Below the pieces are notes generated by a model. That model was not told the origin of the DNA, searched no databases, and worked only from the letters and a program-made list of their open reading frames with translations. The translations under genes were made by a program, and so were the position numbers. From an uncultured Candidatus Saccharibacteria bacterium (GTDB lineage Bacteria > Patescibacteriota > Minisyncoccia > Phycocordibacterales > UBA5272), in contig CAZUPO010000002.1 in NCBI GenBank assembly GCA_964621595.1, positions 12,047 through 76,046 of the forward strand: DNA of 64,000 nt, written 5' to 3'. Shown here in pieces: positions 27,659 through 61,268 of the stretch. Within the stretch, counting starts at the first letter, position 1. The number at the start of each line of letters is the position of its first letter.

Positions 27659-30157
27659 ATGAGAAGGGTTTTGATTCCTCTTTTTTCTCTTGCTATTATA
27701 TGGTCGCTTTTTATTCCTGCCACGGTTCATGGAGCAGTTACTGACGCAGAAATAAAAGCTCTGCGAGATGAGGCGAGAACATACTCAAGCTATAACGGCT
27801 TTGACAATGGTGGGGTGTTTTTGATTAATTATCAAGAGATTGTAGCAAGCACTGCTGCGCGACTAAAAAATGACCCGGACGTCAACAAAGAACAATTAAA
27901 AAAATATATACTCGAGGGAATTCCTGGCGCAACCGACCCAAACCAACAAGGTTTTATTCCCTATTTGCAAAAAAAACTATCCGACTGTTCGGACAGGGGA
28001 TACCTTTCTGCTGCCCTAAATACAGTTTTTGGAAATTCAACAGCACAGTGTATCAAACTTACCGAGGCCGCAATCGCAAATGCAGAAATACAGTTGAAGG
28101 GGGCGACTGTTCGAGATGAAAAAAATGGTGGGGTCATTACTCAGGCAGAAGCCTCGACGCAAATTCAAAATGCGGGAGCGGAAGGAAGTCGGAAGGTTGC
28201 GGCGGCTATAGCGCGATTTGAAAACGCAAAATGTCAAAGTCTCTGGGATGCAACTTTTATTGATTGTATCGATGTTGCGGTGGCGTGGATTATTAAACAC
28301 TACTTCCTACAAATCGCTGGGTTCGTACTCTGGCTCAGTGCGAACATGATGAATTACGCCATAAAGATAGCCATCCTCCAGTTTTCTCAATGGGCGCCAG
28401 CGGCGTTCTACGGTGTGTGGGTGGTGGTGCGTCAAGTTATATCGCTGTTTGTTGTGTTTGCGGGGTTGTGGCTTGGAATGATGTACATTCTGGACAGAAA
28501 ACAGGAGTTTGAGCGTTTCGTGCCATATCTCATCCTCTTTGCGCTATTTGTTAACTTTTCATACCCATTTGCCAGAACACTGATAGACGTCTCTAATGTT
28601 ATTTCTTTGAATATCTACACGAGTGTATTCGGTGCCGAGGCTCTGTCTAACGACGTAATGTCATCGAAGTCCCCCGGGTCCATCATTACCAACCGCCTCG
28701 GACTCGTAAATATTGTAGACCTGGCAACCGGTACAAAAGCAGCAGACAGTGGATTTCTTAACAGTCTCGACAGTGTTCCAGGCGCGCTTACTGCTGTTGT
28801 TTTCATTCTCTATTCCGCATACGTGTTTTTTATGGCTACGGCTATCCTCGTTACACGAACTGCTGTGCTTGTCTTTGTTATCATAGGGTCTCCACTTCTC
28901 TTTGTTGATAGTGTTGTGCCGGCACTAGGAGAACAAGCTAAAAAACTCAGAGGAATTTTTGTCGACCAACTCACTGTGGGACCAGTCTTTACTATTCTCT
29001 TGGCCATAACACTCAAGTTTTTGGATTCCTTGCGGCAAAGTGGTCCACTTAGTTCTATATCTACCGGGATAAACGCTGCATCAAACGCCACCGCGGGAAG
29101 GCAAGATACGGTACAAATATTCTTTGGACTTCTTCTTATGATTGTTGCCCTGCATCTCATGCTGAAAATAACGAAAAGTGTTGCTGGAAAGGCTGGTGCG
29201 ATGGCGACAGATTTTATGGGGAAGGTTGGGGGCATGGCAAGCGGCGTAGCAGTTGGTGCAGCAACTGGTGGAGTTGGGTTACTTGGTCGTGCAACTGTTG
29301 GTAGTCTTGCGGCGAAGGCGCGTGACAGCAAGTGGATGACAAACAACCAAGATTCTTTTCTTGGTAGGCGTGCGTACAATTTAAGTAATTCATTAGCGTC
29401 GAGTTCATTTGATGCTCGTAACTCATCCGTCGCCAAGGCTGGATTCAATAAACTTGGGCTTTCTAGAGGGATGGGCTCGGGGCAGAAGGGTGGTTATGAT
29501 GCTGATGTAACAAATAAAATGAATGACCGTCGTGCGCGGTTAGGTAGAATTCAAGTAACAAATGACGACGGAACTATAAATAAAGAAGGTGCTGCAGCAA
29601 AGCAGCGTTTCTATGAAAAAAATAAGGATCTTGGGGGCGGTAAGTTTGGTAAGGAAATGGTTGACAAGGATTGGGATGAGGCTATTGCTGCAAATAAAAA
29701 AATTGATGCTTATGTTTCAAAAACTGGAGAAAAAAAGGAGGCCTACTTTAACGCTCAAACTGACCCAATACTCAAGGAGCAGATGAAGGCTGTCCAGGTA
29801 AGCAAAGACCAGCTTGCGGCAAATCAGGCTCTTGCTCAATCTAATCAAGCGCTCGCGACAGAGATGCGGGAGACTCGCAATGCAAAATCAGGGGTTGGGG
29901 TTGCTGCGGCCGGGGCGGCAACTGCTACGGCGGCAACTCCTATACAGGTAAATGTTACTGATGGTAAAACAACAGGGCTATCTCTAGAAACTCCAACGGA
30001 GGCATCCTACAGAGTAAGAGGACTATCCCTTGAAACTGACAAAGAGGCTTCTGCTCGAGTGGCACTTGATAAAACAAAAAGTGGCACCGAAAACCGAGTG
30101 GATCATAACCTTGTAGATCATCAGAAGCATGTGGAGGAAGAGTTGTTTGCTTCTTAA
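27659..30157 (+). CDS. Polytopic membrane protein, VirB6/TrbL-like candidate (832 aa)
   Basis: Signal peptide, about 8 hydrophobic helices in residues about 200-520, Gly/Ala-rich low-complexity C-terminal region. Position just upstream of VirB3/VirB4-like genes. Confidence 0.45.
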   Translation: MRRVLIPLFSLAIIWSLFIPATVHGAVTDAEIKALRDEARTYSSYNGFDNGGVFLINYQEIVASTAARLKNDPDVNKEQLKKYILEGIPGATDPNQQGFIPYLQKKLSDCSDRGYLSAALNTVFGNSTAQCIKLTEAAIANAEIQLKGATVRDEKNGGVITQAEASTQIQNAGAEGSRKVAAAIARFENAKCQSLWDATFIDCIDVAVAWIIKHYFLQIAGFVLWLSANMMNYAIKIAILQFSQWAPAAFYGVWVVVRQVISLFVVFAGLWLGMMYILDRKQEFERFVPYLILFALFVNFSYPFARTLIDVSNVISLNIYTSVFGAEALSNDVMSSKSPGSIITNRLGLVNIVDLATGTKAADSGFLNSLDSVPGALTAVVFILYSAYVFFMATAILVTRTAVLVFVIIGSPLLFVDSVVPALGEQAKKLRGIFVDQLTVGPVFTILLAITLKFLDSLRQSGPLSSISTGINAASNATAGRQDTVQIFFGLLLMIVALHLMLKITKSVAGKAGAMATDFMGKVGGMASGVAVGAATGGVGLLGRATVGSLAAKARDSKWMTNNQDSFLGRRAYNLSNSLASSSFDARNSSVAKAGFNKLGLSRGMGSGQKGGYDADVTNKMNDRRARLGRIQVTNDDGTINKEGAAAKQRFYEKNKDLGGGKFGKEMVDKDWDEAIAANKKIDAYVSKTGEKKEAYFNAQTDPILKEQMKAVQVSKDQLAANQALAQSNQALATEMRETRNAKSGVGVAAAGAATATAATPIQVNVTDGKTTGLSLETPTEASYRVRGLSLETDKEASARVALDKTKSGTENRVDHNLVDHQKHVEEELFAS

Positions 30158-34876: not shown

Positions 34877-35707
34877 ATGAATCAGCCATCATATACGGAA
34901 CTTGAACCTAATTTTGCTGGACCGGTAACTACACTCAAGCCCCAGTTCTTTGGATCCTCTGTAACCTTTTTCGCCTCCTCCTCTTTTCTCTACACACTGC
35001 TATTCTCAGCGATTGTAGTATCTGCTGGAGGAATGATTATTTATGGAGCGATACTTAGGTTGGTTCCTTCTGCAAGTAGTGAGGCGAAGTCTAGGGAGAT
35101 TTTTTGGAGGGTTCTTAAGGGTGTGGTTGGAACATTTTCGTTTGCTCTTATATTTCTTACGTTTAATAGGGATTTACTCCGGGGGGATATTGATTTCGGA
35201 ATACTGCGAGCGGGGGTCGGGTCGGGAGGAATAACTACCTCACAAGATAATCCTGATAGACCTGTAGCACCCCCATCTCCAGGATCCAGAACGACCGCAC
35301 CACCGGAAGAGTGGTGGAAAGCTATTAATGAATCTCCGGAGGTTCGAAAGCGTTTGGGGGCCCGTGGAATAACATTCAACAATAATACCTGTAGAAACCC
35401 CGCGGAGACCGCTTGTACAACCGTGGGGGGCTTACCAGAAGACACCCTTGCCATGCTTGAACAATTAAAAGACTACTGCCCCGGCGAACTTATGGTAACA
35501 GGGGGAACGGAAGCGGGGCACAGTGCACATGGGCCCGGCAAAAGAGCTGTGGACCTATCTCGAAAAAGTGCTGCCTTTAATGCTTGTGTTGAAGGATTTG
35601 AGCCGACAAGAAATCCTGGCTTTTGTCACGCCGCATATAAAAAATTCGGCTATACTTTTTGTAATGAGGTGAGTTCTCAGCCCCATTGGCACGTGGATAT
35701 ACGTTAA
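34877..35707 (+). CDS. Membrane-anchored peptidoglycan peptidase: shared TM/pilin-like N-module fused to peptidase M15 (VanY-like) domain
   Basis: N-terminal hydrophobic module FFASSSFLYTLLFSAIVVSAGGMIIYGAIL. C-terminal SAHGPGKRAVDLS (SxHxxGxAxD) and EVSSQPHWHVD (ExxH) motifs of zinc D-Ala-D-Ala carboxypeptidase-like hydrolases. Confidence 0.6.
   Translation: MNQPSYTELEPNFAGPVTTLKPQFFGSSVTFFASSSFLYTLLFSAIVVSAGGMIIYGAILRLVPSASSEAKSREIFWRVLKGVVGTFSFALIFLTFNRDLLRGDIDFGILRAGVGSGGITTSQDNPDRPVAPPSPGSRTTAPPEEWWKAINESPEVRKRLGARGITFNNNTCRNPAETACTTVGGLPEDTLAMLEQLKDYCPGELMVTGGTEAGHSAHGPGKRAVDLSRKSAAFNACVEGFEPTRNPGFCHAAYKKFGYTFCNEVSSQPHWHVDIR
34966..35196. repeat. 231-bp segment identical to 37167..37397 (direct repeat copy A)
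   Basis: Base-for-base identical stretch by inspection from TTTTTCGCCTCCTCC to GGGGGGATATTGATTT. Encodes the shared N-terminal module of the two hydrolases. Confidence 0.85.
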
Positions 35708-37080: not shown

Positions 37081-38067
37081 ATGAACAACGCCGATTATCG
37101 CGCTCTTGAGCCTGGGGTTGTGGCTAATATAACAAGTTTAAAATATCCTGTTGGTGGGGTTAGTTCTTTTTTCGCCTCCTCCTCTTTTCTCTACACACTG
37201 CTATTCTCAGCGATTGTAGTATCTGCTGGAGGAATGATTATTTATGGAGCGATACTTAGGTTGGTTCCTTCTGCAAGTAGTGAGGCGAAGTCTAGGGAGA
37301 TTTTTTGGAGGGTTCTTAAGGGTGTGGTTGGAACATTTTCGTTTGCTCTTATATTTCTTACGTTTAATAGGGATTTACTCCGGGGGGATATTGATTTTAG
37401 TGTTCTTGGTGTTGGTGCTAAGAATATGATATCGAGTATAAGTGGCGCCCCTTCATCTTCAAATAGTACTTCCGCGTCATGTCCTTCAGCAGACTCATTA
37501 AAGCAAACCCTCTCTGGCGGGGGGGATGTCTGCGCTGGGGCGCGATGCTCTGCACTAAGTGGGTGTAGATTCAGAGACTATCTGTCTATAATAAAAAGTG
37601 AATCTGAAAAACAGGGGGTGGATTACAAACTGGCGATAGTAATCATGTGTAAAGAATCCACAGGAAAAAGAGACGCTACTAATGACAACAGGGACGGAAC
37701 ATATGATTGTGGTCTCATGCAGATAAATCAAAGGGGGCCTTGCACGCCAGATTCATTCATACCTGAAAAAAATATTGCTGAGGGTGTTCGTCTTATAAAA
37801 GAAAAAACTGGTCCTTCAACCTCAAGAAATTATCCTGGCGCACCACAACTTGGAAATCTTTTTGCGGCATACAACTGTTGTGCGAGGGGGGCAGCTCCAT
37901 ACGAAGCAAGTGTGGACTGTACAACTGGAAGCGGCTGGCCTTCGACACTTCCTAAATGGGCGTGTCCAATAAATCCGGGGTCCGGACCTTCAAACATGTG
38001 TACAGTACGAAGTTACGCCTGTGATTTAAACGCTTGCTATAAAGACAGTTCCTTAGAGGGGCTTTAA
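37081..38067 (+). CDS. Membrane-anchored lytic transglycosylase (VirB1-like SLT domain) with the shared TM/pilin-like N-module
   Basis: The same N-module as 34877..35707. C-terminal SLT catalytic motif KESTGKRDATNDNRDGTYDCGLMQIN (ES...GLMQ). Confidence 0.65.
   Translation: MNNADYRALEPGVVANITSLKYPVGGVSSFFASSSFLYTLLFSAIVVSAGGMIIYGAILRLVPSASSEAKSREIFWRVLKGVVGTFSFALIFLTFNRDLLRGDIDFSVLGVGAKNMISSISGAPSSSNSTSASCPSADSLKQTLSGGGDVCAGARCSALSGCRFRDYLSIIKSESEKQGVDYKLAIVIMCKESTGKRDATNDNRDGTYDCGLMQINQRGPCTPDSFIPEKNIAEGVRLIKEKTGPSTSRNYPGAPQLGNLFAAYNCCARGAAPYEASVDCTTGSGWPSTLPKWACPINPGSGPSNMCTVRSYACDLNACYKDSSLEGL
37167..37397. repeat. 231-bp direct repeat copy B (identical to 34966..35196)
   Basis: See copy A. 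Confidence 0.85.
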
Positions 38068-45955: not shown

Positions 45956-46462
45956 TTACAATAATTCAGAAATAATGGCCGTTTTGCGGTGTGCGCTGTG
46001 GGTAAGAGCAACTGCGAGCGCATCTAGTTCGTCATCGAGTGTTTTCTTTGGAAATGATGTTTTAAGGAGTTTTGGAACCATAAGAGCAACATCGTCTTTC
46101 GTCGCTTTCCCATATCCTGTCACCGCTACTTTTACTTGTGGAGGAGAGTATTCAAACACCCTCAAATTATTATGTGCTGCTAAAAAAAGACAAACACCAC
46201 GCACCTCTGCAACCCCAATTGCTGTTTTTTGGTTGGTGGTGAAGAAAAGATTTTCCATCGCCACCTCGTTTGGCCTGTAGCGCTCCAAGAGGACGGAGAG
46301 TTCATCCCCTAAATGAAGAAGACGCTTTTCGAAAGAATCCTTTCGATTTGTAACAAGACATGTAGAGAAGACCAAGGTCTCTTTCGAACCATCTTTATCT
46401 ATACACCCAACACCAAGTCGATCAAATCCGGGATCTATTCCTAGAATACGTACAGAGGCCAT
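45956..46462 (-). CDS. ruvC: Holliday junction resolvase RuvC
   Basis: MASVRILGIDPGFDRLGVGCID N-terminal catalytic motif. 168 aa. Confidence 0.85.
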   Translation of the reverse strand: MASVRILGIDPGFDRLGVGCIDKDGSKETLVFSTCLVTNRKDSFEKRLLHLGDELSVLLERYRPNEVAMENLFFTTNQKTAIGVAEVRGVCLFLAAHNNLRVFEYSPPQVKVAVTGYGKATKDDVALMVPKLLKTSFPKKTLDDELDALAVALTHSAHRKTAIISELL

Positions 46463-46463
46463 T

Positions 46464-47447
46464 TTATTTTTTGAAATTAGTCATCGCACGCTCGGTTGCT
46501 TTTCGTCCGCGAGCAGTACGTTCAATCATGCCTATTTGTAATAGGTAGGGTTCGATCACATCTGAAATAGTGTCTTCCTCCTCTCCGGTTGCCGCCGAGA
46601 GAGTATTAACACCAACGGGCCCGCCGTTAAATGTATTAACGAGAGATTCGAGAATGAGTCTCTCCGGGGTTCCGATACCAAACTCATCTATTTCTAGAAG
46701 TGAGAGAGTAGCATTCACAACCTCCTTGTCTATTTCTGCCTTGTGTACTTGTGCGTAGTCGCGGGTGCGTTTCAAGTAGTAGTTGGCGATGCGTGGGGTG
46801 AAGCGCGATCTGCGCGCGATCTCCTCTGCTGCGTCATGGGGAATAGTTGTACCCAAAATTTTTGCACTATTTGAAACAATTGTCGCAATCTCTGCCTCCG
46901 AATAGTATTGTAAACGATATACACCGCCGGAAAAACGTGATCTAAGCGGAGAAGAAAGAAGAGATACGCGCGTTGTCGCACCGATTAGGGTAAATGGAGG
47001 AAGGTCGAGTTGTATTGTTCTTGCAGAGGGTCCCTTACCAATCACGATGTCTAACTTCCCAGACTCCATCGCAGGGTATAAGACCTCCTCGATCATTTTG
47101 TTTAAGCGGTGTATCTCATCAACAAAGAGAATATCACCCGGACTTAAGTTGGTGAGGATTGCCGCAAGGTCACCAACCTTCATGATTGCTGGTCCACTCG
47201 ATAGTTTTAAATTGGCGCCGAGTTCTTTTGCAATCAGGTGTGCGAGTGTTGTCTTCCCAAGTCCTGGTGGCCCATACAAAAGAATATGTTCCGGAGGTGT
47301 TTTGCGCTCCCTCGCCGCAGTTAAGAGGATGTGTAGGTTCTTTTTTATGACTTCTTGGCCGATATAATCTGCAAACGTATCGGGTCTCAGGGTGCTGTCG
47401 AGGTGACGACTCTCCTCGAGTTCAATTGTTTGCTTGTCGACGTTCAT
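46464..47447 (-). CDS. ruvB: Holliday junction branch migration ATPase RuvB
   Basis: GPPGLGKTTLAHLIAKELG Walker A. AAA+ plus winged-helix C-terminus. Confidence 0.9.
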   Translation of the reverse strand: MNVDKQTIELEESRHLDSTLRPDTFADYIGQEVIKKNLHILLTAARERKTPPEHILLYGPPGLGKTTLAHLIAKELGANLKLSSGPAIMKVGDLAAILTNLSPGDILFVDEIHRLNKMIEEVLYPAMESGKLDIVIGKGPSARTIQLDLPPFTLIGATTRVSLLSSPLRSRFSGGVYRLQYYSEAEIATIVSNSAKILGTTIPHDAAEEIARRSRFTPRIANYYLKRTRDYAQVHKAEIDKEVVNATLSLLEIDEFGIGTPERLILESLVNTFNGGPVGVNTLSAATGEEEDTISDVIEPYLLQIGMIERTARGRKATERAMTNFKK

Positions 47448-47720
47448 AAATAGGGGGAGGAGGGGATATTTGACAAAAAATTATAGTATGATATAATGGT
47501 CCACATACACAGAGGTTTGTGAAGTTGCTAGCAGTATCTGTACGGTTCGTTTGACAAAACCTATACATCTCTAAACAATCGGGAGTTTCTCTCATCTTCC
47601 ATGACGAAGGACGGTCTGGTCGCACTTTGTTTGCGTACTGTGCCTATCCTTACGAAGGATTATTCTTCACCAAGGGGTTGCTTAGAGATGTATGGGTTTT
47701 TGTTTTGTCTAAAAACGTAT

Positions 47721-49424
47721 TTAGTAATCACCGTAAAGATCAACAACGCGCCCAACTTCCTCGAAGGAGGTTATTCCTTCCAGTGTTTTTAGTATAGCAT
47801 CTTCACGGAGTGTAGGGATTCCCTGATTTTTTGATGCAATCATGATCTCTCTCTCACTTGGATTGGTTATGAGAACCTTTTCTACTTCAGCAGTGATAAC
47901 AACCCCTTCAAATATTCCAATACGCCCCTTGTATCCAGTACCATCACAATGCAAACATCCAACAGGGCGGTAGAGTTTATATCCAACATCGGGTTTGTGT
48001 CCAAGCATAGAGTCCTCCTTTCCATCAGTTTTCATAACCCCAAGTATAGTGGTGATGACGCGAGTCTCCTTTTCGTTAGATAGATATTCTTCCTTACATT
48101 CAGGACAGAGTTTTCGCACAAGACGCTGTGCCAGCGAGAGGGAGAGCGCCCCCGCGATCACTTTTGGATTTACTCCGAGGTCAATCAGTCGTGGGATGGT
48201 ACCAGCAGCGTTGTTGGTGTGCAGGGTAGAGAACACCAGGTGGCCAGTAAGGGCTGCATTGATCGCAACCTTGGCGGTATCTTCGTCACGGATTTCTCCC
48301 ACCATGATTATGTCCGGATCTTGGCGGAGTGCCGCACGAAGACCAGAGAGAAAGGTATAACCTTTTTTAGGATCAACTTGTGTTTGAGTGATTCCCTCAA
48401 GGTGGTATTCAACAGGATCTTCGATAGTAATAATTTTTGTTTCTGTGGTGTAGGTGGTGCGGAGGAATGCGTAGAGGGTTGTCGTTTTTCCTGACCCTGT
48501 TGGACCAGTTGTGAGAATAACACCATTTGGTTTTGCAAGAGATCTCTCCACGATCTCACGCAACTTCTCCGGAAATGCTATTTGGTGTAAATCAGAAACA
48601 GTGTTTCGTGGATCAAGAAGCCGCATCACAAAACTCTCCCCGTAATTTCCTGGGACAACAGACACGCGCACATCCACCTCCACCTCCCCCAGGTTCACAC
48701 TGAAGCGCCCATCTTGAGCGTTTGCGGTTGTTGAGAGTTTAAGACCAGAGAGAAGTTTGATACGACTCTCGATACTTTTTAGGGACTCAAAATCAAAGAA
48801 AGAAATATCCTCAAGAATTCCATTAAGACGGTAGCGCAAACGCACCCTCTCTTCTTCGGGCTCGATGTGGATGTCGCTTGCACCGAACTTCAGTGCCCCA
48901 GCAACCATAAGTTCCATGATGCGACTTGTTTTGTAGAGAACGTTAGAGGTGGTTAACTTTTCAAATACATCGCGCAACTCCTCGACTGTATCAAAACTCG
49001 CCATGAGTTTCGTCATCTTCTCTGGGGTTAGTTCGAGCATGCCGCTCTCTACATTGGAAAAGCGTTGTAGATCAGCGTATCTATCGTACACGTGACGAAG
49101 GGACGCGTGTGAACACATGAAAAGAAGTATTTGATAATTTTTTTCTTCAAGCGGACGAAGGACCTCCTCCATTGCAGGGTTATCTGGTGAAAGAGAGGCG
49201 ACGTACAACTTCTTCCCAACGAGTTTGAAAGGGGCGATGTTTGCACGCTCAGCATCTTCTTTTGAAATGACAAGGAGAGCGTCTGGTTCAGGCGCAAGAC
49301 CACGCAGGTCAGCATACGGAAGCCCATACTTATCGGAAAGTATCTTTACCAACTCCTCCTCCTCATCTTTGTGGAGGTCTTGGATTGCGAGATTTTGTTT
49401 TTCATCATTAAAAACAACAGACAT
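47721..49424 (-). CDS. Type IV pilus/type II secretion assembly ATPase (PilB/GspE family)
   Basis: N-terminal GSPII_E_N-like domain. Walker A TGPTGSGKTTTLYA. Tetracysteine motif CPECK...CLHCDGTGYKGR. Confidence 0.85.
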   Translation of the reverse strand: MSVVFNDEKQNLAIQDLHKDEEEELVKILSDKYGLPYADLRGLAPEPDALLVISKEDAERANIAPFKLVGKKLYVASLSPDNPAMEEVLRPLEEKNYQILLFMCSHASLRHVYDRYADLQRFSNVESGMLELTPEKMTKLMASFDTVEELRDVFEKLTTSNVLYKTSRIMELMVAGALKFGASDIHIEPEEERVRLRYRLNGILEDISFFDFESLKSIESRIKLLSGLKLSTTANAQDGRFSVNLGEVEVDVRVSVVPGNYGESFVMRLLDPRNTVSDLHQIAFPEKLREIVERSLAKPNGVILTTGPTGSGKTTTLYAFLRTTYTTETKIITIEDPVEYHLEGITQTQVDPKKGYTFLSGLRAALRQDPDIIMVGEIRDEDTAKVAINAALTGHLVFSTLHTNNAAGTIPRLIDLGVNPKVIAGALSLSLAQRLVRKLCPECKEEYLSNEKETRVITTILGVMKTDGKEDSMLGHKPDVGYKLYRPVGCLHCDGTGYKGRIGIFEGVVITAEVEKVLITNPSEREIMIASKNQGIPTLREDAILKTLEGITSFEEVGRVVDLYGDY

Positions 49425-49577
49425 GCCAACAGTATAACAAAGGAGTTTAAGGGATTTTCATTATTTTTTGCGCATCTGGGGAAAGGTTGTGAGGAGAGTA
49501 TTTTTCTGGGGAGGTGGGGGGATGTGTTTTTGTAGAAAAAGAGTGTAAAAAAGAAGGGAAAAATAAGGGGCTAGGGC

Positions 49578-49605
49578 TTGACAAATCTGTATTTTTATGT
49601 ATACT
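49578..49605 (+). promoter_or_regulatory. Near-consensus sigma70 promoter (TTGACA-N16-TATACT)
   Basis: -35 TTGACA at 49578-49583, -10 TATACT at 49600-49605. Confidence 0.5.
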
Positions 49606-49709
49606 TATAGATAAGTTCGTAGGGGTGGCTCTAGGGCCAACTCTCACGAAATTCCATTGTAAATCAAGTAGTTCTAACGCTGCGGGAGACCGCGGAGAAG
49701 GAGAGAATC

Positions 49710-50351
49710 ATGCAACGCCTTATCATCGCGGCGATCCTCGTCGCGAGCGCCCTCCTCGGAGGGTGCGCAGGGATGCCCGGGTTTGGAGATACGGGTGCAG
49801 TTGGGGGTGAGGTCATTACCCTGCGCTGCGCAGATCCCGACCCCGGCTATCGCGGACTACCCAACGGAAGTTGGGTGAAGGGCCCCTGCTACAACTGGCA
49901 GGTCGCAGAGCCCGGCCACACCGGGGGATATACCCGCCAGATCAGAACGGGCTCCAGCAACGCATGCCGTACGGCGATGGAAGTCGCAGGGATCGGTGTT
50001 GGGGTTGGTGTTGGTGCCCTGTCCACCACGCAGAAGAACAGGCTGGCTGGCATGCTCATTGGTGGAGCCGTCGGGTACGGGGGTGGTTACCTCATCGGTA
50101 ACACCTTCTGCAGCAAGAACACCGTCGAGGGTATCCTCGCCGGTGGTGGTACTCGGCCCTCCGTCAAGTACTACGACGGGGCGCCGACGGTCAAAGGGGG
50201 TGTGACCTGCGCCCTCCGCCACAACGACCGGCTGGTCGCCGACTTCTTCGACAAGAAGAAGAACCCGGAGGGTATCGAGATTCCCTCTCAGGGCGCAGGC
50301 GAGCAGTGCCGGGCCGCCATCGAGCGAGTCCGGAAGCAGGCGGGGATCTAA
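49710..50351 (+). CDS. Lipoprotein with glycine-zipper motif (SlyB/17-kDa-antigen-like), GC-rich cassette 5
   Basis: Lipobox LLGGC after the signal peptide. GIGVGVGVGALS...GMLIGGAVGYGGGYLIGN glycine zipper. SD AAGGAGAG 6 nt before ATG. Confidence 0.6.
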   Translation: MQRLIIAAILVASALLGGCAGMPGFGDTGAVGGEVITLRCADPDPGYRGLPNGSWVKGPCYNWQVAEPGHTGGYTRQIRTGSSNACRTAMEVAGIGVGVGVGALSTTQKNRLAGMLIGGAVGYGGGYLIGNTFCSKNTVEGILAGGGTRPSVKYYDGAPTVKGGVTCALRHNDRLVADFFDKKKNPEGIEIPSQGAGEQCRAAIERVRKQAGI

Positions 50352-50374
50352 TTCCCGCCGCGAGCAACAACTTC

Positions 50375-50410
50375 GAGGCTGGGCCCTGTGCCCAGCCTCT
50401 TTCATTTTTA
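50375..50410 (+). terminator. Rho-independent terminator
   Basis: GAGGCTGGGC-CCTGT-GCCCAGCCTC perfect 10-bp stem followed by TTTCATTTTTAT. Confidence 0.7.
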
Positions 50411-50477
50411 TATAAAAGCATTGCAAAATAAGGATTTTTTAGTACCCAATCCCAAAAGAGTAAAGTATAAATAGGGG

Positions 50478-50506
50478 TTGACAAATAGAACTGAACCTGA
50501 TATAAT
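50478..50506 (+). promoter_or_regulatory. Perfect-consensus sigma70 promoter (TTGACA-N17-TATAAT)
   Basis: -35 at 50478-50483, -10 at 50501-50506. The 118-nt leader has two GACTTAAGTT direct repeats (50515-50524 and 50541-50550) and a CCGCGGA-TAT-TCCGCGG hairpin at 50589-50605, abutting the SD. Confidence 0.55.
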
Positions 50507-50624
50507 ATACCCATAGACTTAAGTTAGTGGAAGATAGTTCCGGACTTAAGTTGTCTCGTTCCCCATCAACCTCATCAACAAAACCCAAACCGCGGATATT
50601 CCGCGGAGAAAGAAGGAGATCACC

Positions 50625-51314
50625 ATGTTTGGATACTTGCGCGCGCTGCAAGGCGCGCACAACACGCAGTGGCAAGGTCAGGCGCGCGGCCGTTTCGGCC
50701 GTCGCGCGGGGGCGATCACCTTCTGGGCGATCGTCATCCTCATCCTCCTGCTGTCCCTCTGGGGCAGCTGGAAACTCTCGTCCGCGGCCAACAACCAGGA
50801 CGAGCTGGTAGCGAACCTGCGCCAGCAGGTCACTACCCTGACCGGCGCGGACACCCGCGCCACCGTCTGCCAGACGGAGCTTGACAAGAGCAATACCGAA
50901 CTGAAGCAGGTGAAGTCCTTCTTCCCCGAGGGGGTCAACCTCGAGGGGGTCAAGAAGGCCTGCGCGGTTCTCACCCCGGCAGGTCCGACCAGGACCTCGG
51001 TCCCGACCGGTAGCGGCCGTGCGGCTCCCACCGCTCCGACCAACGCCGCGTGTACCACCTGCGCCTCCCCGGCGCAGACCATCCGCGTGGTGTTGGAGCA
51101 ACAACCCGCGCCGGCGCCCGCCACCCCGGTGGCGCAGCGCGAGGAGCCGAAGGCGCCGGTCGTCGAGATGAAGCCGTGCACGTACTACGTGAACGGCGTC
51201 TCGAAGGCAACCACCAGGTTACCCGAAGGTTCGTCCTTCGAATCGGAGTGCCGCCGCTGGACCGACGGCCTCGCGGCCGCCGGCAAAAAGAAATTCTCCA
51301 ACCAGGTGGACTAA
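50625..51314 (+). CDS. Membrane-anchored coiled-coil / Pro-Ala-rich hypothetical protein, GC-rich cassette 6
   Basis: Basic N-terminus, TM AITFWAIVILILLLSLWGSW, coiled-coil, Pro/Ala/Thr-rich linker, Cys-containing C-terminus. SD AAGGAGA. Confidence 0.55.
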   Translation: MFGYLRALQGAHNTQWQGQARGRFGRRAGAITFWAIVILILLLSLWGSWKLSSAANNQDELVANLRQQVTTLTGADTRATVCQTELDKSNTELKQVKSFFPEGVNLEGVKKACAVLTPAGPTRTSVPTGSGRAAPTAPTNAACTTCASPAQTIRVVLEQQPAPAPATPVAQREEPKAPVVEMKPCTYYVNGVSKATTRLPEGSSFESECRRWTDGLAAAGKKKFSNQVD

Positions 51315-51346
51315 GGATCCACCTAGGGGGTCACAAACCCCCACTC

Positions 51347-51385
51347 AAGCCGCCAGCGCACCCCGCCGGCGGCTTCTCTTTTTGC
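51347..51385 (+). terminator. Rho-independent terminator (preceded by a second small hairpin GGGGGT...ACCCCC at 51326-51342)
   Basis: AAGCCGCC-(14-nt loop)-GGCGGCTT followed by CTCTTTTT. Confidence 0.55.
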
Positions 51386-51388
51386 CTA

Positions 51389-51417
51389 TTGACATTTCTA
51401 AATAAAGATAGTATAAT
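51389..51417 (+). promoter_or_regulatory. Perfect-consensus sigma70 promoter (TTGACA-N17-TATAAT) for the surface-repeat protein gene
   Basis: -35 at 51389-51394, -10 at 51412-51417. AT-rich leader with no SD, unlike the two upstream cassettes. Confidence 0.55.
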
Positions 51418-51467
51418 ATAAGAACTAAAGTAAATTTAACACCCATAAGTTGAATTAATTTAAACAC

Positions 51468-53477
51468 ATGAAAAACAAAATTATTAAAGCAAACATCGTA
51501 ACCGCAGTCCTTTTCACGGGCATTTTTATGCTTGCTGTTGGAACCGCGTCTGCGCAGTCTGATGGTTTTGGATATAACTACGTAGATGTACCAAGTGGTT
51601 ATAACTATGTAGATACTTCTGACTACGGAACAACGAATGTAAATTCAGGAACAGGCTACAACTATGTAGACACTACTACTGCCCCTTCGACATCGTTTGG
51701 CTACAACTATGTAGATTCTTCATCCCCATCAACAACTTTTGGTTATAACTATGTAGATAGTACAGATAATTCTGGTTATGGAACGACAAATGTCTATACA
51801 AACACACCAACGGTTGGATACACAGGATCATCGTTCCTCAGCGGCTTCGGAGGACTTAGTGGATTTGGATACACTCCTTCCTACTACTCTTCTGGTATTG
51901 GATACACAACATATGGGTATACCAACTACGGATCTAATCCAACAACACAGTGTCCTTCAGGAACCAATTATGTAAATGGTGTATGTCAGCCAAATACACA
52001 GTGTCCTTCTGGTACCAACTATGTAAACGGCGTGTGTGTTCCGACAACACAATGTCCAGCAGGAACAACCTACAGCAATGGATCATGTGTTGTTAACTCA
52101 GTAAGTTGTCCATCAGGAACAACCCTTGTGAACGGAGCGTGTGTTGTAAATACAACCACATGTCCAGCGGGCACAACTCTTGTAAATGGTGTATGTACTA
52201 CAAACATCACTACTTGTCCCGCAGGAACAACTCTCATAAACGGTGTATGTACAACTAATATAATTACTCCTACGTATGTATGTCCAAATGGAACGACAGT
52301 AAACTACTCATACCAGTGTCCTACGACAACATACACATATCAAACATGTTGGGACGGAACAACTATTCCACTTAACTCAGTATGTCCTAATCAGTACAAA
52401 CTTTGTCCAAACGGAACAAGTATCCCTGTTAACCAAACATGTTACTACGGAACAACATACACATACGCTGTTCCTCAAACTATTATCAAGTTCAACAATG
52501 TTGTAACATCTCCTGCAACACAGGTGACAAACAACTCAGGTCGTTGTAACGGTATCGGACTTATCGCAAACGGCGCTGCGTCAACTGGATGGTTCGAATA
52601 CGGAGAAACATCATCTCTTGGTCGCGAAACAGCGCATGCGTCCATCGGCAACAACCACACTGCACCATTCTCTAACCTTCTTACAAACCTCAAGCCAAAT
52701 ACTCGCTACTACTGTCGCGCTGTAATGCAGAATCAGTATGGAGTTGTAAAAGGGGAGATCGTTGGATTCACTACAAAGGGAACAAAAGTTACATACGTAA
52801 CCCCAGTTGTAAAAACAGTTGTTAAAAAGGTTGAAAAGAAGCCAGAAGTAACTTGTACAGACGGCACAACTTCATGGGTAAAGAACGGATCTGCAACGGT
52901 AACCTCTACTGTACAAGGAGATAAGTTGGTAGCACTCACCGTTGATAACACATTCTCTCGTTACGCAGCAGGATCACCAATAACATACAAGATCTCATAC
53001 AAGAATCTATCAGATTCTACTCTCACAGGAGTTCTTGTCTCAGTGGTTCTTCCAGCAGAAATCGAAATTACAAGCGCAAGTGCTGGTACCTACGATGTAA
53101 TGACTCGTACCCTTACAGCGAATGTCGATATTCTCGGAGCACGCAGTGAAGGAACAATCACCATCGAAGGCGTTGTATCAAAAGATGCATCTATCGGTAA
53201 GAGTGTCGTTACAACTGGATACATTGTTTACACCGTACCAAGTACAAAACTTCAAGACGAAGTTACTGCGTATACTGTCGGATCAATCTCCCCAAGTGAT
53301 GCAACTCTCAAGTCAGATACAGGTGCAAAGAAGGTGTACGATCTAGGCGGAAGTGAACGTAGTTTCCTACCAAACACTCTCGTGGAATGGTTAGCACTCA
53401 TCGCAATTGTCTTCATCGTATTCATCCTTGCACGAAGCATTTATCTCTCTTACCAGGGAGATAAAGAAGGACACTAG
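51468..53477 (+). CDS. Large cell-surface repeat protein with C-terminal TM anchor
   Basis: Signal peptide. Six GYNYVD-containing repeats. About eight Cys-bracketed repeats (QCPSGTNYVNGVC / TCPAGTTLVNGVC). C-terminal hydrophobic anchor LALIAIVFIVFILARS. Confidence 0.6.
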   Translation: MKNKIIKANIVTAVLFTGIFMLAVGTASAQSDGFGYNYVDVPSGYNYVDTSDYGTTNVNSGTGYNYVDTTTAPSTSFGYNYVDSSSPSTTFGYNYVDSTDNSGYGTTNVYTNTPTVGYTGSSFLSGFGGLSGFGYTPSYYSSGIGYTTYGYTNYGSNPTTQCPSGTNYVNGVCQPNTQCPSGTNYVNGVCVPTTQCPAGTTYSNGSCVVNSVSCPSGTTLVNGACVVNTTTCPAGTTLVNGVCTTNITTCPAGTTLINGVCTTNIITPTYVCPNGTTVNYSYQCPTTTYTYQTCWDGTTIPLNSVCPNQYKLCPNGTSIPVNQTCYYGTTYTYAVPQTIIKFNNVVTSPATQVTNNSGRCNGIGLIANGAASTGWFEYGETSSLGRETAHASIGNNHTAPFSNLLTNLKPNTRYYCRAVMQNQYGVVKGEIVGFTTKGTKVTYVTPVVKTVVKKVEKKPEVTCTDGTTSWVKNGSATVTSTVQGDKLVALTVDNTFSRYAAGSPITYKISYKNLSDSTLTGVLVSVVLPAEIEITSASAGTYDVMTRTLTANVDILGARSEGTITIEGVVSKDASIGKSVVTTGYIVYTVPSTKLQDEVTAYTVGSISPSDATLKSDTGAKKVYDLGGSERSFLPNTLVEWLALIAIVFIVFILARSIYLSYQGDKEGH

Positions 53478-53521
53478 GAGAAACAATAAATGCCTTATGT
53501 GAGCCAGTGTCAATAAGAAAA

Positions 53522-53550
53522 ACGAGCCCCGCAATAAGGGCTCGTTTTTC
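53522..53550 (+). terminator. Rho-independent terminator after the surface protein gene
   Basis: ACGAGCCC-CGCAATAA-GGGCTCGT followed by TTTTTC. Overlapped by the GTG-initiated track ORF 53507, which is therefore probably over-extended. Confidence 0.6.
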
Positions 53551-53569
53551 TATGGTATTATTGGATGAT

Positions 53570-54028
53570 ATGAGAGAGGTTTTTGTTGTTACAGAGGGGG
53601 ATATCAAAGAACTTGCCGAGAAGGTTTTTTCGATTGTTCGCGCTGATTCGACACCGAGTGCCAAGGTGCTTTTTCTCGAGGGAGAACTCGGCTCAGGAAA
53701 AACAACATTCACAAAAGAATTTGCGGAATTACTCGGCATACCGAAAGAAGATGTTATGAGTCCAACATTTATTCTCAAAAAAGAGTATCCTGCACACTCC
53801 CCACACTTTCGAAAACTCATCCACGTAGATGCGTATCGATTTGCAACCCCAGAAGAAGGCAAGGTTCTTAGGTTAGAAGAGGATGCGCAGAATCCAAACA
53901 CCGTCCTAGCGATCGAGTGGCCAGCGCGCCTGCGGGGCATACGTCCGCAGATGCGCATTATGTTCGAGACGGTTGATGATACAACGCGAGAGGTAACGCT
54001 TATATATGGAGAGGACGCACATGACTAA
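53570..54028 (+). CDS. tsaE: tRNA threonylcarbamoyladenosine biosynthesis protein TsaE (YjeE)
   Basis: P-loop FLEGELGSGKTTFTK at the position expected for TsaE. Start placed at MREVFVV, after the terminator. Alternative ATG at 53552. Confidence 0.7.
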   Translation: MREVFVVTEGDIKELAEKVFSIVRADSTPSAKVLFLEGELGSGKTTFTKEFAELLGIPKEDVMSPTFILKKEYPAHSPHFRKLIHVDAYRFATPEEGKVLRLEEDAQNPNTVLAIEWPARLRGIRPQMRIMFETVDDTTREVTLIYGEDAHD

Positions 54029-56372
54029 GAAGTTTACAAACACCGTTGTTTTGCTCGACGCTCACGCGATACTCCACCGCGGATTCCATGCGATGCAGGG
54101 TTTTGCAACTCGTGATGGGAGACCAACAGGGGCGCTCTACGGATTTCTCACGATGGTTCTTAGAATCTACGAAGATATAAAGCCCAACTACATTGCAGCG
54201 TGTTTTGATTTGCCTAAGCCAACATTTCGTCACACAAGCTATGACGGTTACAAAGCTGGACGACAAAAAGCAGACGACGCTCTCATTGAACAGATCCAAG
54301 AATCGTACAAACTTTGTGAAGCGCTCTCTATACCCGTGTATACAGCGGAAGGATTCGAGGCGGATGATCTCCTTGGTACTCTTGCGGAGCAACTAAAGAA
54401 AGATCCAAACACGCGAGTAATAATTGCAAGTGGGGATATGGACACATTTCAACTCATTGATGGTACAAAAGTACTCGTCTATACAATGCGCAAAGGAAAC
54501 GAGACGGCGCTATATTCTCGCAAAGAGGTGATTGAACGTTTTTCTTTTCCACCAGAACACATACCGGATTACAAGGCTTTCGCGGGCGATAGTTCTGACA
54601 ATATTATTGGGATTGCGGGTATTGGTGACAAGACGGCGACGGAACTTATCAAACATTATGGAACAGTTGAAAGTGTTTATAAGGTTCTAAAAAAAGACCG
54701 AAACAAACTTCTTCAGGATGGATTCAAGGAGCGGGTTGTTGGGCTACTCGAGCAAGGGGAGGACGACGCCCTCTTTTCTAAAACACTTGCAACCATTCGA
54801 CGAGATGCACCGGTCACCTACGCACACCAAGACAAAGAGTGGTTGCGTAGTATTGATCTAGAAACATACAAAGCAATGTGTGAGAAATACGAATTTCGTT
54901 CTCTTCGTTCACGACTAGAACAGTTGCGCGGGGAGGGGATACAACTTCCAGAAGATAAAGAAGAAGAGGCGGTAGAGGTATCTCAAGAGGACCTAGAAGA
55001 GTTGAGGGTTATGGTGAACCTTCTTCACAGTGAGATGACAAATGCGCCACTTGATGAGATACAGCGGGTTACGGGTAAAAAAGATGTCGCAGGGATGAAA
55101 GAATTTCTAACGAAGAGTCTCGAAGATGAAGGGTTATATGATCTTTTTATAACCATGGAAAAACCTCTCATGGCATGTGTGCGCGAGATGGAGGTAAACG
55201 GGATCACCGTTGATGTTGATCTTCTGAAAGAGATGAGCAAACTTCTCCACAAAGAAGTAAAAACGCTCGAGAAAAAGATTCACACTCTCGCTGGGGAAGA
55301 ATTTAACATCGCTTCCCCAAAACAACTCGGAGAAGTGTTGTATGAAAAACTGGCCCTTGGGACAAAGATAAAAAAGACAAAGACGGGTCAGAAGAGCACA
55401 GGTGTGCACGAACTTGAGAAGATTGTGGGAGAACATGAAATAGTCCCGCTTATTATTGAGTACCGAGAACTAACAAAACTACTCTCTACATACATAGACA
55501 CCCTACCAACATACGTGAAAGAGGATGGGCGGATTCATGCACATTTTGTGCAGACGGGGGCAGCAACCGGGCGCTTTAGTTGTGAGGATCCTAATTTGCA
55601 AAACCTACCAATAAAAAGTGAGTTGGGACAAAAGGTAAGAGGGGCATTTGTTGCACCAAAAGGAAAAGCACTTCTCTCGTGTGACTACGGGCAAATAGAC
55701 TTGCGTTCTGCCGCCATTCTTTCACAAGATGAAAATCTGCTCGATATTTTTAAGAAGGGAATAGATGTTCACACAGGAACAGCAGCGAGAGTCTTTGGTG
55801 TAAAAGAAGACAAGGTAACACCAGAGATGCGTCGCAAAGCAAAGACTATTAACTTCGGGATCCTCTATGGCATGGGAGTGACCTCACTGAAAGAAGGTAT
55901 GGGGGTGGAGAGAAAGGAGGCGCAGGAGTTCTACGATCAATACAAATTTACATTTTCGAAACTCATGAATTATCTCGAAGAAGTGAAGGCATATGCATGG
56001 AAGCACGGGTACACCACAACCCTCTTTGGGCGCAGACGAGAGATACCACTTCTCAAGAGCCCTCTGCCATACTTGCGAGCACAGGGAGAGCGCATCGCCA
56101 TTAACGCTCCGATTCAAGGAACAACAGCGGACATTATCAAACTCGCCCTACTTGATGCGAAAGAATACATCACAGAAAAAAATTTAGAAGATGATGTAAA
56201 AATTTTGCTTCAAATTCACGATGAACTTATTTTTGAAATTGTAGAATCAAAAAAGGACACAATCGGAAAAGAGCTTGTAACCGTGCTGGAGAACGTTTTA
56301 CACAAACGAGGTATCGACAGTGTCCCGCTCCTTGTATCGTGTTCAGTTGGTAAGAACCTTCAAAAACTTTAA
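54006..56372 (+). CDS. polA: DNA polymerase I
   Basis: N-terminal 5'-3' exonuclease (VVLLDAHAILHRGFHA). C-terminal pol motifs (RRKAKTINFGILYG, QIHDELIFE). Confidence 0.9.
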   Translation: MERTHMTKKFTNTVVLLDAHAILHRGFHAMQGFATRDGRPTGALYGFLTMVLRIYEDIKPNYIAACFDLPKPTFRHTSYDGYKAGRQKADDALIEQIQESYKLCEALSIPVYTAEGFEADDLLGTLAEQLKKDPNTRVIIASGDMDTFQLIDGTKVLVYTMRKGNETALYSRKEVIERFSFPPEHIPDYKAFAGDSSDNIIGIAGIGDKTATELIKHYGTVESVYKVLKKDRNKLLQDGFKERVVGLLEQGEDDALFSKTLATIRRDAPVTYAHQDKEWLRSIDLETYKAMCEKYEFRSLRSRLEQLRGEGIQLPEDKEEEAVEVSQEDLEELRVMVNLLHSEMTNAPLDEIQRVTGKKDVAGMKEFLTKSLEDEGLYDLFITMEKPLMACVREMEVNGITVDVDLLKEMSKLLHKEVKTLEKKIHTLAGEEFNIASPKQLGEVLYEKLALGTKIKKTKTGQKSTGVHELEKIVGEHEIVPLIIEYRELTKLLSTYIDTLPTYVKEDGRIHAHFVQTGAATGRFSCEDPNLQNLPIKSELGQKVRGAFVAPKGKALLSCDYGQIDLRSAAILSQDENLLDIFKKGIDVHTGTAARVFGVKEDKVTPEMRRKAKTINFGILYGMGVTSLKEGMGVERKEAQEFYDQYKFTFSKLMNYLEEVKAYAWKHGYTTTLFGRRREIPLLKSPLPYLRAQGERIAINAPIQGTTADIIKLALLDAKEYITEKNLEDDVKILLQIHDELIFEIVESKKDTIGKELVTVLENVLHKRGIDSVPLLVSCSVGKNLQKL

Positions 56373-56382
56373 GTCACACCCT

Positions 56383-57012
56383 ATGTTGTACGTACTTGTT
56401 GGCACAGATCAAACAAAACGAAAAGAAGCATACGAAAAACTCGCACATCTTGGTCGGGTTACCAACCATATTTACAGCGAGCATGTTTCGCTTGTGGAGC
56501 CGCTCATCGACGCAACAAGCCTCTTCGGGGATCGCATTGTGGTTCTTATGATACAAACCCTTGAGAACGCTGCACAAAGAGAAATTGTTACAGAACTTCT
56601 ACCCAAATTACAAAAGTCCTCAAACATTTTCATTATCGACGAGCCGCTTGCTGATGCTAATCGGGTGAAGTCTCTTCAAAAGCACGCACAAGAACTCTAT
56701 GATGCGCGCCCGCCGAAACGCAAGGATGTTGATCTGTTCACAATTTGTTCACTACTTGAAAGGAGAGACAAGAAAGAGGTATGGCTGGAGTGGCGAAAAA
56801 TTTCTCCGCTTGAAACAGGGGAGGCACTACAGGGTATTCTTTGGTGGAAATGGAAAACAGTGTGGGAGAACACACTTCTCGGGCGCCCTAGTAAATATAC
56901 AAAAGAAGAATGTGAATTTTTTGGAGGAAAACTGTTACGTGCCCCAATACGGGCTCATCGTGGTGAAGGGGACCTAAAACTTATTTTGGAAGAAATCATT
57001 TTGTCTATATAA
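56383..57012 (+). CDS. Hypothetical protein, weakly DNA polymerase III delta (HolA)-like
   Basis: Start taken at MLYVLVGTDQ, just after the polA stop. N-terminal clamp-loader-like segment. Weak evidence. Confidence 0.3.
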   Translation: MLYVLVGTDQTKRKEAYEKLAHLGRVTNHIYSEHVSLVEPLIDATSLFGDRIVVLMIQTLENAAQREIVTELLPKLQKSSNIFIIDEPLADANRVKSLQKHAQELYDARPPKRKDVDLFTICSLLERRDKKEVWLEWRKISPLETGEALQGILWWKWKTVWENTLLGRPSKYTKEECEFFGGKLLRAPIRAHRGEGDLKLILEEIILSI

Positions 57013-60590: not shown

Positions 60591-61268
60591 ATGAAACACG
60601 TCGGAGGCGGCGAGCGGCGCCGCAACAGAAAGATCACGGCGCAGATCCGCCGCGCGATCAAGAACGGCTTCACGTACTACGCAAGGACGGTGTGCGGGCG
60701 CCCGCGAAGAATCCCGAGCGAAGTAACCGCACCTGCGAATCCTGCACCGGTGGCAAAGGTCGCGGAGGAAGACAATTCCTACCTCCAGATCAAGCTTGCG
60801 GATATCCGGGTGGGCGCCGAGCTCTACAGTTGGGAACTGCTTCGGATGTCTGCGGCAGGGATCAACACGCTCGGGGATCTCTATGCGGTCGGCTTCTCTG
60901 GTTTCCTCGCAACACCGAATCTCGAGAAGGGGACCATTCTGAAGATCGGCGGGTGGTTGCGGGTAAACCGGTACCCGATGATTCCCGAGATGGGAAATGG
61001 GTTACGGTTGGAATTCACGAAGTTCAGCGTCACGCCGGTGACCAGTCTTCCCCTTCGGCAGATGACGATGAATTCCTTCGAGCGGGCTAGCATCAGGACA
61101 CTCGGGGAGGTCTATCGTCTGGGCTTCTCGGGGCTGAAGCACGTCCTCGGTCGCCATGGATTTGGTGCCAAGAGGAAGGAAGACATCATCCAGGCGCTCC
61201 AGAACATCGGGGCTCCGCCGCTCAACGAGATGGGCCACAACGAAGACTGGGCTCCGAAAGGAGGATAG
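60591..61268 (+). CDS. GC-rich protein with two tandem RNA polymerase alpha C-terminal-domain (alphaCTD)-like helix-hairpin-helix modules
   Basis: SD GAGGAGA before ATG 60591. Repeats AAGINTLGDLYAVGFSGFLATPNLEKGTILKIGGWL and RASIRTLGEVYRLGFSGLKHVLGRHGFGAKRKEDIIQALQNIG resemble alphaCTD (ANCLKAEAIHYIGDL...[20 protein letters not shown]). Basic N-terminus. Confidence 0.55.
   Translation: MKHVGGGERRRNRKITAQIRRAIKNGFTYYARTVCGRPRRIPSEVTAPANPAPVAKVAEEDNSYLQIKLADIRVGAELYSWELLRMSAAGINTLGDLYAVGFSGFLATPNLEKGTILKIGGWLRVNRYPMIPEMGNGLRLEFTKFSVTPVTSLPLRQMTMNSFERASIRTLGEVYRLGFSGLKHVLGRHGFGAKRKEDIIQALQNIGAPPLNEMGHNEDWAPKGG

Follow-up and report, generated by a model that had tools for sequence, protein, structure and literature searches.

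We analysed a 64,000-nt stretch of DNA (hereafter the window) of an uncultured Candidatus Saccharibacteria bacterium (contig CAZUPO010000002.1, GenBank assembly GCA_964621595.1) and describe three consecutive genes, gene 1 to gene 3 (g1–g3), each of which is preceded by a consensus or near-consensus sigma-70-type promoter (P1–P3). The locus has the order ruvB, a candidate non-coding RNA (ncRNA), pilB on the reverse strand, g1, g2, g3, tsaE, and polA. Because it is flanked by tyrS, ruvC, ruvB, pilB, tsaE, and polA, the window represents cellular DNA. Coordinates of all features (Table 1) are positions within the window, and leaders are counted from predicted starts, 7 nt downstream of the -10 box.

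Table 1. Features of the g1–g3 locus and its flank, with positions in the window (SD, Shine-Dalgarno sequence; ORF, open reading frame; scores out of 12 are matches to the two consensus hexamers)
Feature	Position	Strand	Description
Fourth promoter	47470..47497	+	Exact TTGACA-N16-TATAAT with TG extension; no ORF downstream
Candidate structured ncRNA	47504..47706	+	Convergent with the pilB 3' end; conserved core 47557-47704, 23-bp closing helix followed by a U-run
pilB	47721..49424	-	T2SSE/MshEN ATPase; divergent from g1; apparently leaderless, TATACT ending 6 nt before the ATG
Promoter P1	-35 TTGACA 49578-49583, N16, -10 TATACT 49600-49605	+	11/12
Leader 1	49612..49709	+	About 98 nt from predicted start; 5' stem-loop 49616-49650, GC hairpin 49680-49695, polypurine tract and SD 49694-49705
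Gene 1	49710..50351	+	213-aa lipoprotein with Gly-zipper-like middle and conserved 2-Cys C-terminal domain
Terminator T1	50375-50399 (hairpin), to 50409 with T-run	+	10-bp GC stem; -22 kcal/mol, z = -3.8
Promoter P2	-35 50478-50483, N17, -10 50501-50506	+	TTGACA-N17-TATAAT, 12/12, TG-extended -10
Leader 2	50513..50624	+	About 112 nt; 5' stem-loop 50516-50552, GC hairpin 50590-50606, polypurine tract and SD 50605-50619
Gene 2	50625..51314	+	229-aa bitopic membrane protein: one transmembrane helix, coiled-coil-like segment, Pro/Ala linker, Cys-containing C-terminus
Terminator T2	51326..51387	+	Two hairpins; second 51347-51375, -31 kcal/mol, z = -3.3; U-run abutting the P3 -35
Promoter P3	-35 51389-51394, N17, -10 51412-51417	+	TTGACA-N17-TATAAT, 12/12
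Leader 3	51424..51467	+	About 44 nt, AT-rich, no SD
Gene 3	51468..53477	+	669-aa surface protein: signal peptide, Tyr-/Cys-rich repeats GYNYVD and CPxGTxxxNGxC, DUF11 (E = 7e-8)
Terminator T3	53516-53551	+	-24 kcal/mol, z = -4.6, T-run

P1 and the two exact promoters P2 and P3 have the coordinates and letters that a preliminary description of this DNA had given for them, and their hexamers and spacers (16, 17, and 17 nt) are those of sigma-70-type promoters. The same description calls exact consensus promoters rare; three TTGACA-N16-18-TATAAT sites were observed in 64 kb against 0.03 expected from dinucleotide shuffles, and none of 100 shuffles reached three. P1–P3 and a fourth promoter at 47470 are the sole sites with at least 11/12 consensus matches on either strand of the window; all four are on the plus strand and lie inside 4 kb (47470-51417), and they top the 21 matches of the consensus scan in 46000-57000. 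Judged by these counts and by the cross-species comparison below, P1–P3 are non-chance, natural promoters that are predicted to be strong and under selection. Each gene also has the terminator previously ascribed to it, and T1–T3 all fold well (z = -3.3 to -4.6) with a T-run after each. By its predicted architecture of promoter, leader, and terminator, each of the three genes is a separate, insulated transcription unit. One low-coverage ENA contig (L002) lacks 48 bp of the window (50364-50411), T1 included, as a deletion polymorphism or an assembly error.

The earlier assignment of the products as a Gly-zipper lipoprotein, a membrane coiled-coil protein, and a 669-aa surface repeat protein is correct, with the qualification that the g1 match to Pfam Gly-zipper_Omp misses the threshold (20.6 bits, cut-off 25, E = 4e-4). 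The lipobox LLGGC of g1, within MQRLIIAAILVASALLGGC, agrees with the signal-peptide lipobox pattern [LVI][ASTVI][GAS]C, and there is a weak NCBIfam match to an entericidin-type signal peptide; for a g1 paralogue of a related species (L139) a Gly-zipper_YMGG match is on record. An AlphaFold2 model of g1 is confident only in the C-terminal 60 residues (pLDDT about 90) and had no Foldseek match in the PDB (E = 3). The C-terminal domains of the g1 and g2 families are homologous (hhalign probability 95.6%, E = 1.3e-8). At the C-terminus of g3 (53360-53477) an LPNTL motif is followed by a transmembrane helix, which suggests a sortase-like sorting signal and thereby that the repeat protein is anchored covalently or in the membrane. 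The ends of g3 orthologues (window 53360-53477, L145 g3, and L014:6846-8228) combine a conserved LPN(T/S)L or LPATG motif with a basic tail, and a hydrophobic helix lies between the two.

Among 185,579 species genomes, the best relatives of the window's PilB are encoded on metagenome-assembled genomes of Patescibacteria (Kaiserbacteria, Parcubacteria, Moraniibacteriota, and bins labelled 'Saccharibacteria'), with about 50% identity. A word-indexed search of 5.8 billion proteins returned only same-species matches for g1 and g2, which are near-orphans by that measure. An HMMER profile search with g1 among 1.84 billion representatives recovered 11 proteins with the C-terminal 2-Cys domain of about 55 residues, and the contigs of all 11 carry the same locus in other species; the family was reached because a full profile search was used, the word-indexed search being insufficient. 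As delimited by these searches, g1 and g2 form a small family restricted to Patescibacteria. Viral contigs and phage records searched for g1 and g2 gave no match, and a phage origin was dropped. A metagenome scan with patterns from the g1 protein alignment was likewise abandoned, since the patterns were too degenerate (600 matching stretches, none confirmed).

Six syntenic loci with DNA sequence were compared (L139, L140, L141, L144, L145, and L148); a further contig of the family (for P0004) is known by its gene list only. L145 has the complete order tyrS, ruvC, ruvB, pilB (reverse), g1, g2, g3, tsaE, and polA. Identity to the window across the six loci is 66-74% for PilB, 22-29% for g1, and 17-22% for g2, and g3 orthologues are 41% identical. 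The promoters of g1 orthologues are TTGACA-N16-TATA(C/A)T (11-12/12; leader of 58-100 nt with SD) and those of g2 orthologues TTGAC(A/T)-N16/17 (9-12/12; leader of 53-91 nt with SD). Orthologues of g3 have TTGACA-N18-TATAAT (12/12) wherever the gene is present, with a leader of 18-23 nt and no SD; a 12/12 promoter precedes the gene in L139, L144, L145, and L014. The promoters of g1–g3 and of the ncRNA are the only sites scoring at least 11/12 in the six loci, four of them exact (12/12) in L145, and pilB is leaderless-type in all six. More distant genomes (L010, L012, and L014) have 11-12/12 promoters ahead of a lipoprotein or a Tyr-rich LPATG-anchored protein gene between pilB and tsaE/polA, and in L139 two g1 paralogues lie side by side under almost identical promoters. 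Because spacers, leaders, and proteins have diverged around unchanged hexamers, the promoters appear to be selected and real.

The three promoters stand out from the transcription signals in the rest of the window. At 20 of the 60 gene starts, a -10 box of the form TA(T/C)A(C/A)T, often TGn-extended, lies 4-10 nt before the ATG and there is no SD; the same box precedes 5% of all ATGs in the window (enrichment at gene starts, P about 1e-11). These leaderless-type promoters are without a good -35 box. The pattern suggests that leaderless mRNA is common in this organism, a norm from which P1–P3 depart twice, by their consensus -35 and by leaders of about 98, 112, and 44 nt before the ATG. Examples of the leaderless type are the genes at 3473-5095(-), 9006-9824(-), 16912-17670(+), 27659-30157(+), and 47721-49424(-). 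A 6-mer SD (AAGGAG) occurs only before four GC-rich genes, namely 685-1254, 14975-15595 (reverse strand), g1, and g2, and by eye GAGGAG was seen before a fifth GC-rich one, 60591-61268. The GC content is 0.64 for g1 and 0.67 for g2, with GC contents at third codon positions (GC3) of 0.755 and 0.868, where 0.38 is expected from amino-acid content and host codon usage; both G and C are raised at this position. With a GC content of 0.42, g3 is host-like, and its GC3 of 0.32 is below the host mean.

The leaders of g1 and g2 resemble each other in their predicted structure, and both have the polypurine tract GGAG-AA-GGAG with the SD AAGGAG. CA-rich CATCAAC repeats are present in leader 2 at 50564-50586. 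The two copies of GACTTAAGTT reported for leader 2 exist (50516-50525 and 50543-50552); what had been taken for direct repeats are really the two arms of the 5' stem-loop (its lower stem), because ACTTAAGT is palindromic. A 5'-proximal stem-loop is predicted in 15 of 15 g1/g2 leaders across species, with unrelated sequences (mean z of the first 45 nt from the predicted starts, -2.46). The apical GGAA...UUCC of leader 2 is recognisable in two L139 leaders, and a UCAUCAAC(A) stretch recurs in the leaders W_g2, A_g1b, and B_g1. Across species the leaders share, at the level of prediction, a layout in which a stem-loop near the 5' end is followed by a single-stranded A/C-rich stretch and then by an SD.

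A second hairpin, rich in GC, is found in leaders 1 and 2 of the window. The 10-mer CCGCGGAGAA, which had been noted at the ends of both leaders, indeed lies directly 5' of each SD (49690 and 50601); the window holds exactly these two copies, with 0.06 expected, and no third. The 10-mer corresponds to the 3' arm of a GC hairpin (6-7 bp), fused to the polypurine tract that holds the SD. The hairpin was known from the SD of leader 2 (CCGCGGA-UAU-UCCGCGG, 50590-50606; -12.9 kcal/mol, z = -3.7), where it is present as described, and leader 1 has an equivalent that had been overlooked (CUGCGG-GAGA-CCGCGG, 49680-49695; -10.6 kcal/mol, z = -3.3). In both leaders it sits 4-9 nt ahead of the polypurine tract and SD. 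A second strain (L008) keeps the hairpin with AGAA; in its leader 1 the U.G pair is replaced by C-G, and six other changes fall in the last 40 nt, one of them turning a G of the SD into A. No CCGCGG hairpin with AGAA occurs in the 12 orthologous leaders that the six related species provide. A metagenome scan for TTGACA-N16/17-TATAMT-N72-102-CCGCGGAGAA, in a collection without this organism, gave 50 matches, all of them chance: none was related to the window by blastn and none had an SD-ATG. Rfam gave no match at gathering score for the whole window, and at lax thresholds 47440-51480 yielded only chance matches over T1 (E = 0.08-0.4). The proposal of a shared translational or regulatory element thus stands in so far as the hairpin is common to both leaders and to the second strain, and falls with its absence from the orthologous leaders and the unrelated metagenome matches. 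On this comparison, CCGCGGAGAA is neither an element in itself nor a conserved regulatory element, and the hairpin is a species-specific addition. Duplication or gene conversion between the paralogous cassettes of g1 and g2 is the probable source of the hairpin's two copies; whole cassettes may plausibly have duplicated in tandem, because g1 and g2 share a C-terminal domain and L139 has its two adjacent, near-identically promoted g1 paralogues. Read on the minus strand, the leader 2 hairpin is followed by TTTGGGTTTTG and scores as terminator-like, and could stop antisense transcription entering from g2.

In our interpretation the locus is a natural module, conserved between species, for high expression of three cell-envelope proteins in a Parcubacteria/Kaiserbacteria-like bacterium of the Patescibacteria (candidate phyla radiation, CPR); we give this reading a probability of about 0.8. 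The addition of a consensus -35 to the -10 box would make P1–P3 the strongest promoters of the region, and T1–T3 would insulate each unit against its neighbours. In the g1 and g2 mRNAs, the stem-loop within a few nucleotides of the 5' end would protect against 5'-end-dependent decay; the unstructured A/C-rich stretch followed by a strong SD (AAGGAG) would give efficient initiation, and ribosome loading would add to mRNA stability. As with ompA hp2, the most likely role of the GC hairpin would be to form a second structural barrier or to prevent pairing of the SD; just as well, it could be neutral, a by-product of exchange between the cassettes of g1 and g2. The preliminary description's alternative of very strong, insulated expression agrees with this reading, as stand-alone units with near-consensus hexamers are kept in six related species and three distant genomes; the strength itself is predicted.

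Several known systems resemble this arrangement. Like the Escherichia coli ompA 5' untranslated region (UTR), the leaders would belong to an abundant envelope-protein mRNA, with about 100-130 nt, a predicted stem-loop at the 5' end, a single-stranded segment, and a second hairpin upstream of a strong SD. Unlike ompA, to which they have no sequence or Rfam relationship, they have the second hairpin in this species only, the likely nuclease would be RNase J and not RNase E, and stabilisation is predicted. According to work listed in PMC3997798, ompA and aprE mRNAs are stabilised by 5' stem-loops together with ribosome binding (Emory 1992, Arnold 1998, Hambraeus 2002), and RNase J is retained in CPR bacteria (PMC12641178). 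A parallel in an RNase J organism is the Bacillus subtilis aprE leader and the polypurine STAB-SD, where a 5' stem-loop and a ribosome at a strong SD or polypurine tract guard against 5'-to-3' decay (Hambraeus 2002, Hue 1995, as listed in PMC3997798). The GGAG-AA-GGAG tracts of the window leaders are of this type; the sequences are otherwise unrelated, the function here is putative, and the surrounding genome is apparently largely leaderless.

E. coli lpp and S-layer genes such as Lactobacillus slpA are stand-alone units with strong promoters, stable mRNAs, and a structured 5' UTR with a paired 5' end that encode abundant envelope proteins. g1–g3 are similar in being monocistronic units of promoter, leader, gene, and terminator, to which g1 and g2 add a predicted structured 5' UTR with a paired 5' end, and differ in that the proteins are not homologous and their abundance is presumptive. 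The -10 boxes 4-10 nt before the ATG without SD, at a third of the starts (20/60), recall the leaderless-dominated transcriptomes of the Mycobacterium and Deinococcus type and the 'leaderless' genome class of GeneMarkS-2 (PMC6028130, PMC3898074). The window differs from such genomes by a small class of GC-rich, SD-led genes that coexists with the leaderless one, whose members were called here from sequence.

Strong sigma-70-type promoters and stabilising 5' UTRs on genes of abundant envelope proteins are thus already known. New is the setting, with many apparently leaderless genes, a clade-wide locus, GC-rich and fast-evolving lipoprotein genes, and an adjacent new ncRNA. Patescibacteria are mostly uncultured, and experimental knowledge of their transcription and translation signals is almost nil. 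The locus offers a sequence-level, cross-species picture of a maximal CPR promoter, with full E. coli-type -35 and -10 boxes as against an apparent -10-only, leaderless default. Its three probably very abundant envelope proteins, encoded beside a type IV pilus ATPase, are candidate host-contact or surface-layer components, and for later genetic work in CPR bacteria its promoters, leaders, and terminators are a ready supply of strong, insulated expression parts. Further leads, concrete and open to testing, are the ncRNA and the fast-evolving genes with high GC and an SD.

Among other explanations, CCGCGG-N4/5-CCGCGG could be a genuine co-regulatory site of g1 and g2, either a DNA operator at which a dimeric regulator acts as a roadblock or a hairpin in the RNA to which a protein or small RNA binds, controlling access to the SD. 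Two neighbouring leaders with the identical 10-mer at the identical place with respect to the SD, where 0.06 copies are expected, would fit such a site, as would its perfect or near-perfect palindromy, the inclusion of part of an upstream GGAG in the stem, and the fact that the second strain has kept and perfected it, with six nearby positions of the leader changed. The element is, however, missing from all 12 orthologous leaders of six related species, has no other copy in the 64-kb window, has unrelated matches in the metagenome scan, and belongs to no Rfam family in either leader; furthermore, the canonical downstream SD is predicted to be unpaired and is not occluded by the hairpin. We consider a co-regulatory site unlikely.

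A recent horizontally transferred island from a high-GC, SD-using donor, with promoters, SD, and hairpin motif arriving together with the g1 and g2 cassettes, would account for the atypical composition of the two genes (GC 0.64-0.67, GC3 0.75-0.87 and thus twice the expectation, in a genome of 0.44 GC), for the fact that the window's sole 6-mer SD matches precede GC-rich genes, and for the near-orphan status of g1 and g2 among 5.8 billion proteins. Orthologues nevertheless occupy the identical syntenic position in six related and three distant species, and in every species, L010, L012, and L014 included, they are GC-enriched relative to pilB. Because of this shared enrichment the composition is best seen as an old, maintained property of the locus and not as a mark of recent import. 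The searches found no donor homologues in any well-sampled high-GC lineage, phage record, or viral contig, and no integrase, tRNA, or repeat boundary was noticed beside the locus; recent transfer is accordingly an improbable explanation.

An artefact or a designed sequence (chimeric assembly, a synthetic construct as the preliminary description had contemplated, or chance promoter-like hexamers in AT-rich spacers), at which the uncommon exact consensus promoters and the sharp GC steps might hint, has a negligible probability: seven contigs from independent JGI, ENA, and Logan metagenome assemblies reproduce the region and every GC step and junction at 99.9-100% identity, which excludes chimera and construct, the architecture is syntenic and kept across species, and shuffles yield 0.03 exact sites. 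Samples in which this organism occurs are SRR23702483, SRR23702504, ERZ4216102, ERZ27283041, and JGI 3300045395 and 3300045398.

Some observations weigh against the high-expression module itself. Transcription start sites, promoter strength, and mRNA half-life are all deduced from sequence alone. The 5' stem-loops of three leaders are weak (A_g1b, D_g2, and E_g1; z = -0.8 to -1.2). As all six sister species are without the GC hairpin, it is dispensable for the module and maybe functionless, and since it is also a DNA palindrome it may be read as an operator. g3 has the best promoter and neither an SD nor a strong 5' structure, so that no single recipe serves the three genes. Finally, the extreme GC3 of g1 and g2 is left unexplained by high expression. 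Codon adaptation to high expression was considered as the cause and is unlikely, given the GC3 of 0.32 in g3 with its best promoter.

The co-occurring second strain L008 differs from the window by one single-nucleotide polymorphism in 2740 bp of upstream flank. The centre of g1 (49777-50087; L008:2875-3179), by comparison, was unalignable by blastn, with mosaic, gradual recovery of identity towards the 3' end. The g1 proteins of the two strains are 57-61% identical, and the alleles differ by all substitution types and by indels over about 310-420 bp. A second copy or template of the segment was not found in the 64 kb. A diversity-generating retroelement (DGR) as the source was rejected on the substitution pattern and the lack of a template copy in the window, although no search aimed at a reverse transcriptase was made. 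The data point to allelic replacement by recombination at a predicted surface protein and not to a DGR.

Tentatively, this could extend to a lineage-wide 'variable envelope cassette' in Patescibacteria, in which the flanks serve as homology arms and the exposed middle of g1, perhaps also of g2, is swapped within and between species. If so, one homology arm would comprise promoter, leader, and signal peptide, all invariant, and the opposite arm the terminator and the conserved 2-Cys C-terminal domain, and swapping would serve evasion of host or phage by an episymbiont. The persistent GC-rich, SD-led composition of these genes, in genomes that are AT-richer elsewhere and have many leaderless genes, would then reflect a circulating pool of alleles or GC-biased gene conversion at a recombination hotspot, and the neighbouring ncRNA would be a new abundant RNA of Patescibacteria, possibly linked functionally to the locus.

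The 200 nt past the 47470 promoter fold strongly (z = -3.4) into a candidate RNA of about 150-200 nt with a multibranch core, loosely 6S-like in its predicted architecture. Promoter (TTGACA-N16-TATAAT) and RNA are conserved at L141:2893-3039, L145:2757-2902, and L148:220-366, with seven covarying pairs among the four species. Nothing credible was found for it in Rfam at gathering and lax thresholds. Covariance-model matches (E 1e-13 to 1e-4), always convergent with pilB, were obtained in eight more distant Patescibacteria (L009, L010, L011, L012, L014, L015, L019, and L020).

Elsewhere in the window, the three other GC-rich genes form single-gene islands (685-1254(+), 14975-15595(-), and 60591-61268(+)) with a GC3 of 0.71-0.81, each with its own leader, strong SD, and terminator. 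Their products are, in this order, 189, 206, and 225 aa long; the second is secreted, and the third has RpoA-CTD-like helix-hairpin-helix repeats. The three are mutually unrelated by BLASTP, which detected no paralogy between any of the window's GC-rich proteins, the link of g1 and g2 being visible at profile level only. A moderately GC-enriched segment on the plus strand (10039-11954) comprises a 42-aa ORF (GC 0.61, strong SD) followed by genes for a radical SAM enzyme (10374-11288) and for a receiver domain that stands alone (11577-11954), and may be a small cluster resembling those for ribosomally synthesised and post-translationally modified peptides (RiPPs). A 230-nt direct repeat with 100% identity is present in two different ORFs 2.2 kb apart (34967-35196 and 37168-37397).

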